Of a stretch of DNA of 8,220 nucleotides, positions 3,014 through 3,348 are shown in pieces. Origin of the DNA: a virus (Duplodnaviria > Heunggongvirae > Uroviricota > Caudoviricetes); the IMG/VR virus record IMGVR_UViG_2778261515_000002, positions 1 through 8,220 of that record; one strand, given 5' to 3'. The first letter of the stretch is position 1. Each line of letters begins with the position of its first letter. The notes below the pieces were generated by a model that was not told where the DNA came from, ran no database searches, and worked only from the letters and a program-made list of their open reading frames with translations. The position numbers and the translations under genes are program-made.

Positions 3014-3088
3014 TGGAGCGGGTAGCGGGAATCGAACCCGCATCATCAGCTTGGAAGGCTGAGGTAATAGCCATTATACGATACCCGC
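3014..3088 (-). tRNA. tRNA-Gly (anticodon UCC)
   Basis: Reverse complement is GCGGGTATCGTATAATGGCTATTACCTCAGCCTTCCAAGCTGATGATGCGGGTTCGATTCCCGCTACCCGCTCCA. Canonical cloverleaf with 7-bp acceptor stem, T-loop TTCGATT and encoded CCA. Near-identical to a host glyT-type tRNA, with a compensatory base-pair change in the acceptor stem. Confidence 0.9.
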
Positions 3089-3094
3089 ATATAG

Positions 3095-3167
3095 TGCCGA
3101 TTACCGGAATCGAACTGGCGACCCGGTGATTACAAGTCAGTTGCTTTGTCTGCTAAGTTAAATCGGC
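3095..3167 (-). tRNA. tRNA-like gene, tRNA-Thr(UGU)-like, non-canonical (possible pseudogene)
   Basis: Reverse complement is GCCGATTTAACTTAGCAGACAAAGCAACTGACTTGTAATCACCGGGTCGCCAGTTCGATTCCGGTAATCGGCA. Perfect 7-bp acceptor stem (GCCGATT/AATCGGC), T-loop TTCGATT, and anticodon loop CTTGTAA (anticodon TGT). But the D and anticodon stems have mismatches, there is an A-C mismatch in the T stem, and the 3' tail is CTA rather than CCA. Lies 6 nt from the tRNA-Gly. Confidence 0.4.
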
Positions 3168-3348
3168 AACGGTTCCTCGGAAAAAATAAAACGACCGATA
3201 TATGCATTATTTCCCTGTCATCTCCTCGGAACCGACTATCGATATTAATGAGGGCAAACACTATTTCAATAAACATAGTGTCAATATTAGTAAATATATG
3301 TATAAATTTCTATCACTCGTGATTGATTACAAATAATCACACACATAT

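Follow-up and report, generated by a model that had tools for sequence, protein, structure and literature searches.

How a prophage tRNA gene that has lost part of its cloverleaf should be read, as a ruin or as a design, is the question raised by one locus in an 8,220-nucleotide stretch of a Caudoviricetes genome (IMG/VR record IMGVR_UViG_2778261515_000002, positions 1 to 8,220), referred to here in its whole length as the window. At this locus a tRNA-Thr(UGU)-like element precedes a canonical tRNA-Gly(UCC). A preliminary description of the sequence had offered two alternatives for the element, a decaying pseudogene or a deliberately non-canonical tRNA, and each of them seems to explain part of it. 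The mismatches in the anticodon stem fit the published rule for resistance to the tRNA-cutting effector P2-OLD, which speaks for the cleavage-resistant variant among the options first proposed, and the lesions of the D arm and the elbow together with the loss of CCA speak for decay. The preferred reading is that the element descends from a nuclease-evasive prophage tRNA-Thr and has since decayed, so that it is now weak or dead and rides before the tRNA-Gly; this reading is held with about equal measures of confidence and doubt. The tandem pair was correctly recognized in the preliminary description, which left its strand unstated. Both genes lie on the minus strand, in the order Thr-like element, UAU spacer and tRNA-Gly, as follows.

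3092..3167, minus strand: tRNA-Thr(UGU)-like element, allele B; 76 nucleotides, thrU-derived, 3' CUA at 3092-3094
3132..3134, minus strand (plus-strand ACA): anticodon UGU; the whole loop CUUGUAA equals the thrU loop
3125..3126, minus strand: U43C and G42C; pairs 27-43 and 28-42 broken, C40-A41-G42 changed to C-A-C
3146..3158, minus strand: D-arm changes G10A (3158), C13U (3155), G22A (3146), G19A (3149) and U20C (3148)
3089..3091, minus strand: spacer UAU between both tRNAs, 3 nucleotides, read from the sequence
3014..3088, minus strand: tRNA-Gly(UCC); called by ARAGORN at default, Rfam tRNA 65.6 bits, CCA encoded

The element and the tRNA-Gly were aligned to thrU and glyT of Escherichia coli K-12, from which both evidently descend; the descent from thrU had gone unseen in the preliminary description. 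The Thr-like element differs from thrU by 13 substitutions (63/76 identical). Positions 23-41 and 50-66 are the same in both, and so are the anticodon loop, the T arm and the discriminator base. The features noticed at the outset were all recovered: the acceptor stem pairs at all 7 positions, the T-loop reads UUCGAUU, the anticodon loop CUUGUAA carries UGU, the D and anticodon stems are mismatched, and the 3' end reads CUA where CCA would be encoded. In the D stem, A10.C25 is mismatched and C13U is compensated by G22A to a U-A pair. In the anticodon stem, A27.C43 and C28.C42 leave 3 bp. The Infernal alignment marked non-canonical pairs in three stems (D, anticodon and T), and the one in the T stem, A52.C62, is also present in host thrU. 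U33, G18 and the T-loop are kept, and G19A abolishes the G19-C56 elbow pair, a loss on which the preliminary description had not remarked. RNase BN and the CCA-adding enzyme mature those tRNAs of phage T4 that lack an encoded CCA, and these tRNAs are functional, so a missing CCA is not in itself disabling.

The element is similar to the tRNA family but falls short of a normal member. The Rfam tRNA match at 3095-3167 (minus strand) scored 45.9 bits (E=1.7e-7), which passes the RF00005 gathering threshold of 29 bits and lies approximately 26 bits under the canonical alleles. With ARAGORN at default the tRNA-Gly was the sole tRNA called in the window; with thresholds at 95% the element was called tRNA-Thr(tgt) with the same cloverleaf. 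RefSeq annotates no tRNA at the element in the E. coli genomes that contain it (0 of 14). The possibility that a normal tRNA had simply been misfolded in the preliminary description was given almost no credence. Its only support was the score above the gathering threshold, and it was ruled out by the non-canonical pairs of the Infernal alignment, the ARAGORN default miss, and the 13 thrU differences with three extra broken pairs and G19A.

The substitutions fall into two layers, and the first consists of the double change G42C/U43C in the anticodon stem. The effector behind P2-lambda interference is P2-OLD, which kills by cleaving the anticodon stem of host tRNA-ThrU(UGU) (PMC12445682). It cuts after C28 and C40 of paired CNG motifs; site 1 falls between nucleotides 28 and 29, and a 12-nucleotide fragment is released (PMC12445682). 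Cells are rescued by phage tRNA-Thr(UGU) genes whose products resist the cutting, among them the gene of lambdoid phage 21, and the rescue tRNAs act by replacing the target, with no competitive inhibition (PMC12445682). The UGU anticodon is required for rescue, and resistance requires an altered CNG motif together with a shortened stem, either of which alone fails (PMC12445682). The motifs of thrU are C28-U29-G30 and C40-A41-G42. In the window, G42C/U43C turned the second motif into C-A-C and left C28 unpaired, with the 5' C28-U29-G30 kept. Judged by its sequence, the element combines the UGU anticodon, an altered CNG motif and a shortened anticodon stem (3 bp).

The same three features occur in tRNA-Thr21 of phage 21 (sequence taken from the phage 21 genome record) and in tRNA-Thr6 (PMC12445682), although the underlying changes differ. 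Thr21 has G27.A43 with U28-A42, Thr6 has G30C/C40G and U43A, and the window has G42C and U43C. Unlike Thr21 and Thr6, the window's element lost two pairs and kept the 5' C28-U29-G30, and its resistance is a prediction. Moreover, Thr21 is otherwise sound (61.5 bits, computed free energy -23.1 kcal/mol), whereas the window allele scored 45.9 bits at -8.6 kcal/mol. The principle is that of the phage T5 tRNA-Lys variant which escapes the PARIS nuclease AriB through changes of the anticodon stem-loop that block cleavage; that case involves another tRNA, another nuclease and another phage type, and there the function was shown experimentally (PMC11464382).

The double change is not confined to the window. 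UCAUC or UCACC at positions 39-43 (jointly UCAYC) was found in approximately 35 real tRNA matches among IMG/VR viral contigs, in at least 12 backgrounds that vary in D loops, in acceptor stems, in having Gly or Arg downstream, and in being chimeras with a phage-21-type 5' half. Most of these variants are otherwise perfect cloverleaves. The clean ones (L148, L168, L020 and L154 among them) share the 42/43 change on a thrU scaffold, usually in a Thr-TAT-Gly module; they keep G10, G19, the D stem and CCA, are called by ARAGORN at default, and scored 58.8-63.6 Rfam bits, compared with 61.5 for tRNA-Thr21. Scans for alleles changed only at position 42 or only at position 43 found none derived from thrU. 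Hence, the 42/43 double change appears to recur and to be maintained, and it agrees with the published rule for resistance. The first layer most likely arose or was kept for escape from a P2-OLD-type anticodon-stem nuclease, and recombination could have spread one origin of the change over several backgrounds.

Two kinds of altered tRNA-Thr gene deserve separate mention. The commonest 42/43 form is a chimera, in which positions 1-26 are those of tRNA-Thr21 and the remainder is of the thrU type with UCAUC and G49 (L139, L141, L142 and L145, 13 contigs; L013, L156, L169 and L172, 4 contigs). It scored 47-49 Rfam bits and was missed by ARAGORN at default; its acceptor stem relies on G.U pairs, and one sub-allele has a compensating C68. 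In addition, thrU-derived copies with switched anticodons were present, G35C giving UCU and G35U giving UUU (L003 2698-2770, minus strand; L094). The UCU copy is annotated as tRNA-Arg in phage SerU-LTIIb and scored 57.5 bits. Such single-base changes of G35 would alter decoding and probably charging.

The second layer belongs to one lineage. The window lineage goes beyond the clean alleles by G10A, C13U/G22A, G19A, U20C, A44G and A49G, and in alleles B and C by C75U. Among 5,426 complete E. coli genomes, 14 carry this lineage, and their sources are pig, human, cow and poultry; it also occurs in a few viral and metagenome contigs, and it was found in no other species' representative genome. Three alleles were distinguished, with the following states at pairs 6-67 and 49-65, the 3' end and the Rfam score.

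Allele A (SE11, L039): U6.G67, G49.U65, CCA, 43.7 Rfam bits
Allele B (window): U6-A67, G49.U65, CUA, 45.9 Rfam bits
Allele C (avian pathogenic E. coli, cow): U6-A67, G49-C65, CUA, 47.8 Rfam bits

All three have G10A, C13U/G22A, G19A, U20C, G42C, U43C, A44G and A49G in common, and C75U, which gives the CUA end, occurs only in B and C. All three were missed by ARAGORN at default and called tRNA-Thr(tgt) at the 95% threshold. No fourth allele was found when viral contigs, metagenomes and species-representative genomes were scanned for the lineage, the further matches (such as L130-133, L190 and L192-193) being due to chance, and the D-arm changes G10A, C13U/G22A, G19A and U20C were seen in no allele outside it. 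The likely starting point of the lineage is L009, a functional-looking allele with U6-A67 (72.9 bits) that is ten substitutions away. U6-A67 thus pre-exists in functional-looking alleles, L009 and L118. Allele A may have acquired a canonical 3' end by recombination, in which case two of the three apparently recent changes would no longer count as such.

The cost of the second layer was evaluated by covariance scores and computed folding. The canonical thrU-type alleles scored 72-73 Rfam bits, compared with 43.7-47.8 for the window's lineage. The computed free energy of the cloverleaf was -8.6 kcal/mol for the window allele, approximately -17 for the clean variants and -21.5 for thrU. Measured against the clean variants, the second layer costs approximately 8 kcal/mol of cloverleaf stability and approximately 15 Rfam bits. 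Furthermore, the cloverleaf is not the minimum-energy fold of the window allele. Because of the C42-C43-G44 changes, the predicted best fold (-20.2 kcal/mol) pairs positions 41-49 with 56-65.

The distribution of the changes was then compared with neutral expectation. In a random-substitution simulation 2.7-4.1 broken pairs were expected and three were seen, and the one compensated pair of the window allele was not significant (p 0.16-0.22). A strong claim of compensatory evolution for this allele was considered and not sustained, given this p value and the presence of U6-A67 in L009 and L118. Within the lineage, 3/76 sites of the Thr-like element, 8/181 of the spacer, 1/75 of the tRNA-Gly and 51/349 of the third positions of the neighbouring methyltransferase gene were variable. 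Against other methyltransferase-linked modules, the Thr-like element differed at 9-13/76 sites (12-17%) and the tRNA-Gly at 0/75; the methyltransferase third positions were 8-22% different and the spacer 28-42%. The counts in this pseudogene rate test were small, and two of the three recent changes in the Thr-like element improve pairing. Together, the tests point to relaxed constraint on the element, with a hint of residual selection on its acceptor and T stems. The second layer is read as relaxed constraint because it is confined to a rare, narrow lineage and appears to have accumulated at near-neutral rates.

In the preferred reading, copies of thrU and glyT form a two-gene tRNA module in a lambdoid late operon, with anticodons for ACA and GGA. 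The first layer, which removed two anticodon-stem pairs and the 3'-strand CNG motif, would be nuclease evasion inherited from a functional ancestor. The second (G10A, G19A, U20C, A44G, A49G and CCA to CUA) is confined to one narrow E. coli lineage and makes the cloverleaf marginal, so that decoding was probably lost. The Thr-like element probably still shares a transcript with the functional tRNA-Gly and is then cleaved from it. Several observations weigh against this reading, and those on the first layer concern the nuclease and the mode of mutation. P2 old was matched in 17 of 5,426 complete E. coli genomes and in 0 of the 14 carriers (megablast, at least 85% nucleotide identity; diverged homologues would be missed), and 14 of the 17 matches were at least 99% identical to P2. 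Moreover, no recognisable Gam, the trigger of OLD, was present in the window's prophage. With P2 old rare and no Gam recognised, the selective agent of the first layer is a putative one in this prophage. The UCACC change also creates a perfect 7-nucleotide direct repeat in which positions 39-45 equal 47-53 (UCACCAG in L020 and L148; tRNA positions 39-53 are 3115-3129 of the window), and a single templated step between imperfect repeats would be an alternative explanation for the invariably double change. If that were the whole explanation, the element would be a plain pseudogene in which every change, G42C/U43C included, was neutral, and the recurrence would reflect a templated hotspot with no role for a nuclease. 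UCAUC likewise lengthens an AUC repeat, doubles without single intermediates are expected from a one-step event, and the rarity of P2 old agrees with such an origin. This explanation was nevertheless considered unlikely. The double change occurs in many otherwise perfect tRNAs whose variation preserves structure (G5.U68 to G5-C68 in the chimera), which indicates that the 42/43 variants are functional tRNAs that are being maintained. The change falls on precisely those two features that experiments showed to be jointly needed for OLD resistance, and it has two outcomes, UC and CC, at the same sites.

The remaining objections to the preferred reading concern the second layer, since the preservation of the upper half of the molecule is suspiciously good. 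The acceptor stem is intact (7/7), the T arm and anticodon loop equal those of thrU, and, of the ten changes that separate the element from the closest functional-looking allele, nine lie in positions 10-49. Two of the three variable sites turn G.U into Watson-Crick pairs (U6.G67 to U6-A67 and G49.U65 to G49-C65), the two compensated pairs of allele C reached p ~0.013-0.024 in the simulation, and U65C lifts the computed share of the cloverleaf approximately 300-fold. The mismatches 10-25, 27-43 and 52-62 and the lost G19-C56 are all A.C, the mildest kind, and C28.C42 alone is severe. The known sequence determinants for threonyl-tRNA synthetase (ThrRS), G1-C72, C2-G71, G35 and U36, are all present. 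No copy of the element has an indel, the element is only approximately 5% short of the ARAGORN threshold, and the chimeric alleles, of equally low score (47-49 bits), are found in 17 contigs. Several of these points would be expected if the element were still a working, weak tRNA-Thr(UGU), which would be transcribed with the tRNA-Gly and trimmed, receive CCA from the host enzyme, be charged by ThrRS and serve as a cleavage-resistant decoder of ACA, its D-arm changes being tolerated or even selected. Also in favour of a working tRNA are the improvement of structure at the only two G.U pairs, the copies of exactly 76 nucleotides in prophages with differing Q genes and downstream morons, the ARAGORN call as tRNA-Thr at 95% of the threshold and the high use of ACA by the prophage, and the functional T4 tRNAs without encoded CCA are a precedent. 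A phage tRNA-Thr with a shortened anticodon stem has been proven functional (PMC12445682). A working tRNA, the main rival, was regarded as possible but doubtful. The near-universal G10-C25 and G19-C56 are lost alongside a 3-bp anticodon stem, the cloverleaf at -8.6 kcal/mol competes with a fold at -20.2, and the score is approximately 15 Rfam bits below the validated Thr21 and the clean variants. The divergence rate seems to be like that of neutral flanks, whereas the tRNA-Gly and the canonical Thr alleles are fixed; furthermore, the lineage is rare and RefSeq annotates nothing there. The good preservation of the acceptor/T-arm half, which is seen by RNase P, the CCA-adding enzyme and EF-Tu, would also suit a non-translational role, either as a decoy for tRNA-targeting nucleases or toxins or as a 5' module for the RNase P processing or stability of the tRNA-Gly. 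The 3-nucleotide junction to Gly that is fixed throughout the modules and the structure-improving changes inside the lineage are also in line with it. Such a role was thought very improbable: a precedent was not found, rescue works by target replacement and not by competitive inhibition (PMC12445682), the tRNA-Gly follows other tRNAs (Arg) in other clusters and needs no particular upstream partner, and the lineage is rare and young. It is also improbable that all changes are adaptive. In that case the element would be a re-engineered tRNA-Thr(UGU) or decoy that evades or soaks up several tRNA-targeting nucleases, with the D arm, elbow, anticodon stem and 3' end altered and the acceptor/T-arm half functional, and U6-A67 and G49-C65 would be ongoing tuning.

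The partner of the element is an ordinary working copy of tRNA-Gly and a common prophage allele. It is near host-like, as first noted, and differs from K-12 glyT by one compensated acceptor pair, C6-G66 to U6-A66 (73/75 identical). The pair is real. Selection on the window copy, which it had been taken to suggest, is another matter; the same Gly allele was found in 40 of the 116 prophage modules listed, and a standing allele tells little about this copy. The tRNA-Gly is constant across the window's lineage save for the singleton A14G in L127 (E. coli 401651), which hits a universally conserved base (the U8-A14 pair). The modules were collected with the conserved 3' part of the Thr gene as the probe for a scan of viral contigs, which gave at least 119 contigs; 116 modules were extracted, with 25 Thr alleles and 24 Gly alleles. 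The Thr-TAT-Gly arrangement is common in viral contigs, the TAT spacer is shared by most prophage Thr-Gly modules, and most Thr copies are canonical and (nearly) identical to thrU. Many modules have extra upstream tRNAs, namely Met/Ile(CAU)-like, Arg(UCU), Lys(UUU) and Asn. In the host, the genes belong to the thrU-tyrU-glyT-thrT-tufB operon. The prophage copies differ from that arrangement in standing head to tail with a 3-nucleotide spacer, without tyrU, in a phage late operon, and the window Thr copy differs from host thrU in its three extra broken pairs, the lack of G19 and the CUA end. Searches of the literature on the Thr-Gly module or on ileZ/argN/argO returned nothing useful.

Several side observations concern the Gly gene and its neighbours in the larger clusters. 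The glyT anticodon stem has paired CNG motifs (C28-A29-G30 and C40-U41-G42) and A37, as reported for P2-OLD substrates, and the prophage copy retains them unchanged (K-12 glyT: L134 874-948). The tRNA-Gly goes unmentioned in PMC12445682. Two prophage tRNA-Gly alleles have insertions of several bases inside the anticodon arm, e.g., ...CCTCGGCTACTTTAGCCTTCCTAGCTG..., one in L051 around 11304-11390, where ARAGORN misses the copy, and the other in one further module. Between the Met-like and Thr genes of larger clusters, ARAGORN reported a "tRNA-???" whose anticodon, ag, has two bases (L069 1719-1792, plus strand; L049 923-996, minus strand), which is another non-standard tRNA-like gene in that slot.

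Codon usage agreed with the compensation of codon supply that the preliminary description had put forward for the Gly(GGA) and Thr(ACA) codons. The share of ACA among Thr codons was 22.7% in the prophage and 10.4% in the host sample, a 49-kb set of K-12 genes (p ~5e-11), and the share of GGA among Gly codons was 18.8% and 7.6%, respectively (p ~7e-15). Both codons were therefore enriched 2.2-2.5 times, and ACA, GGA, AGA and AUA were used two to five times more than in the host sample. The enrichment of ACA and GGA indicates that codon supply is a sufficient reason for the tRNA module to exist.

Upstream of the Thr-like element, three features of the operon were located.

3171..3234, minus strand: leader hairpin with arms GGUUCCGAGGAGAU and UUUUCCGAGGAACC and a tandem GA/GA internal loop
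3242..3269, minus strand: promoter-like site TTGAAA-16 nt-TAATAT, predicted by consensus scan, just upstream of the hairpin
3349..4395, minus strand: DNA methyltransferase gene (N6_N4_Mtase, Pfam E=2.5e-43), neighbouring the tRNA module on its upstream side

The preliminary description had reported a 9-bp direct repeat here. The repeat TCCTCGGAA was confirmed in sequence and position (3174-3182 and 3223-3231). Its motif is nearly palindromic, so the two copies also form the arms of a 12-nucleotide inverted repeat, and functionally they are arms of a conserved leader hairpin and not a repeat. Both copies lie inside the hairpin, which stops 3 nucleotides before the 5' end of the Thr-like element. 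A hairpin of the form GGUUCY-GA-N6...N6-GA-RGAACC, with the tandem GA/GA invariant, stands ahead of the first tRNA in 43 modules, among which 15 distinct arm pairs occur (L002, L003, L020, L026 and others besides the window). When the arms were anchored on the outer motif, 89% of cells could pair, compared with 24-70% in slid controls, and six pairs changed on both sides, compared with 3.2 +/- 1.0 in shuffles (3/500). No Rfam family matched the hairpin. It was tried as the late terminator tR' and rejected in that role, having no trailing U-run and a weak z-score of -1.3. In phage 21, tR' abuts the first tRNA and consists of a strong GC stem with a U-run after it (z = -6.1), and the window hairpin is unlike it. 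The hairpin may be a stabiliser of the 5' end or a processing signal. The hexamers of the promoter-like site are conserved at the same place in several related modules.

The stretch was 100% identical to a prophage in porcine enterotoxigenic E. coli (ETEC) strains. In ETEC1732 the whole prophage is approximately 41 kb long and adjoins ssrA; it runs from the integrase through the tail fibres with a full structural gene set, and it is a lambdoid, intact-looking prophage. The order on the minus strand is the Q antiterminator, an OmpC-type porin gene on the opposite strand, a small open reading frame (ORF), the DNA methyltransferase, the promoter-like site and leader hairpin, the Thr-like element with the tRNA-Gly, a 132-aa ORF, two holins, an M15 endolysin, an HNH gene and the terminase. 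According to the annotations, the methyltransferase gene is linked with the tRNA module across many prophages. The tRNA pair is located in the late-operon slot that lambdoid phages use for tRNAs and toxin morons. In Shiga-toxin-type lambdoid prophages, the tRNA cluster ileZ-argN-argO stands in the same slot, upstream of the toxin and lysis genes, and follows the same rare-codon logic. The window differs from those clusters in having the Thr-like element and Gly alone, with the leader hairpin in place of further tRNAs. In phage 21, tRNA-Asn and tRNA-Thr lie between pR'/tR' and the holin, which corresponds to the window's slot between Q and the lysis genes.

Two neighbouring genes were also examined. 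The porin gene (window 5192-6289, plus strand; Pfam Porin_1, E=5e-155) is full-length and of the OmpC type, and lies between Q and the methyltransferase; as it is on the opposite strand, the late transcript must cross it antisense. SE11 has the same porin gene with an IS5 insertion nearby. The 132-aa ORF (window 2498-2896, minus strand), just downstream of the tRNA-Gly, occupies the slot of TerB/DUF3927 or toxin genes in relatives. It had no match in Pfam or PHROG, and its odd, low-complexity-looking translation suggests that it may not be a real gene.

As a prophage module the tRNA pair is ordinary, and both such modules and nuclease-resistant phage tRNAs are already known. As far as searched, the recurrent 42/43 variant of the thrU-derived tRNA-Thr and the heavily altered lineage of the window appear new. 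Their interest lies in the link to the P2-OLD mechanism published in 2025. Annotation pipelines silently drop such genes. The window allele stands at the extreme of the series and offers a test case for the damage that is tolerated before a tRNA fails. If confirmed, UCAYC at positions 39-43 would be a simple sequence marker of predicted resistant alleles, and the variants would provide population-level evidence that anticodon-stem nucleases shape the tRNA genes of prophages.

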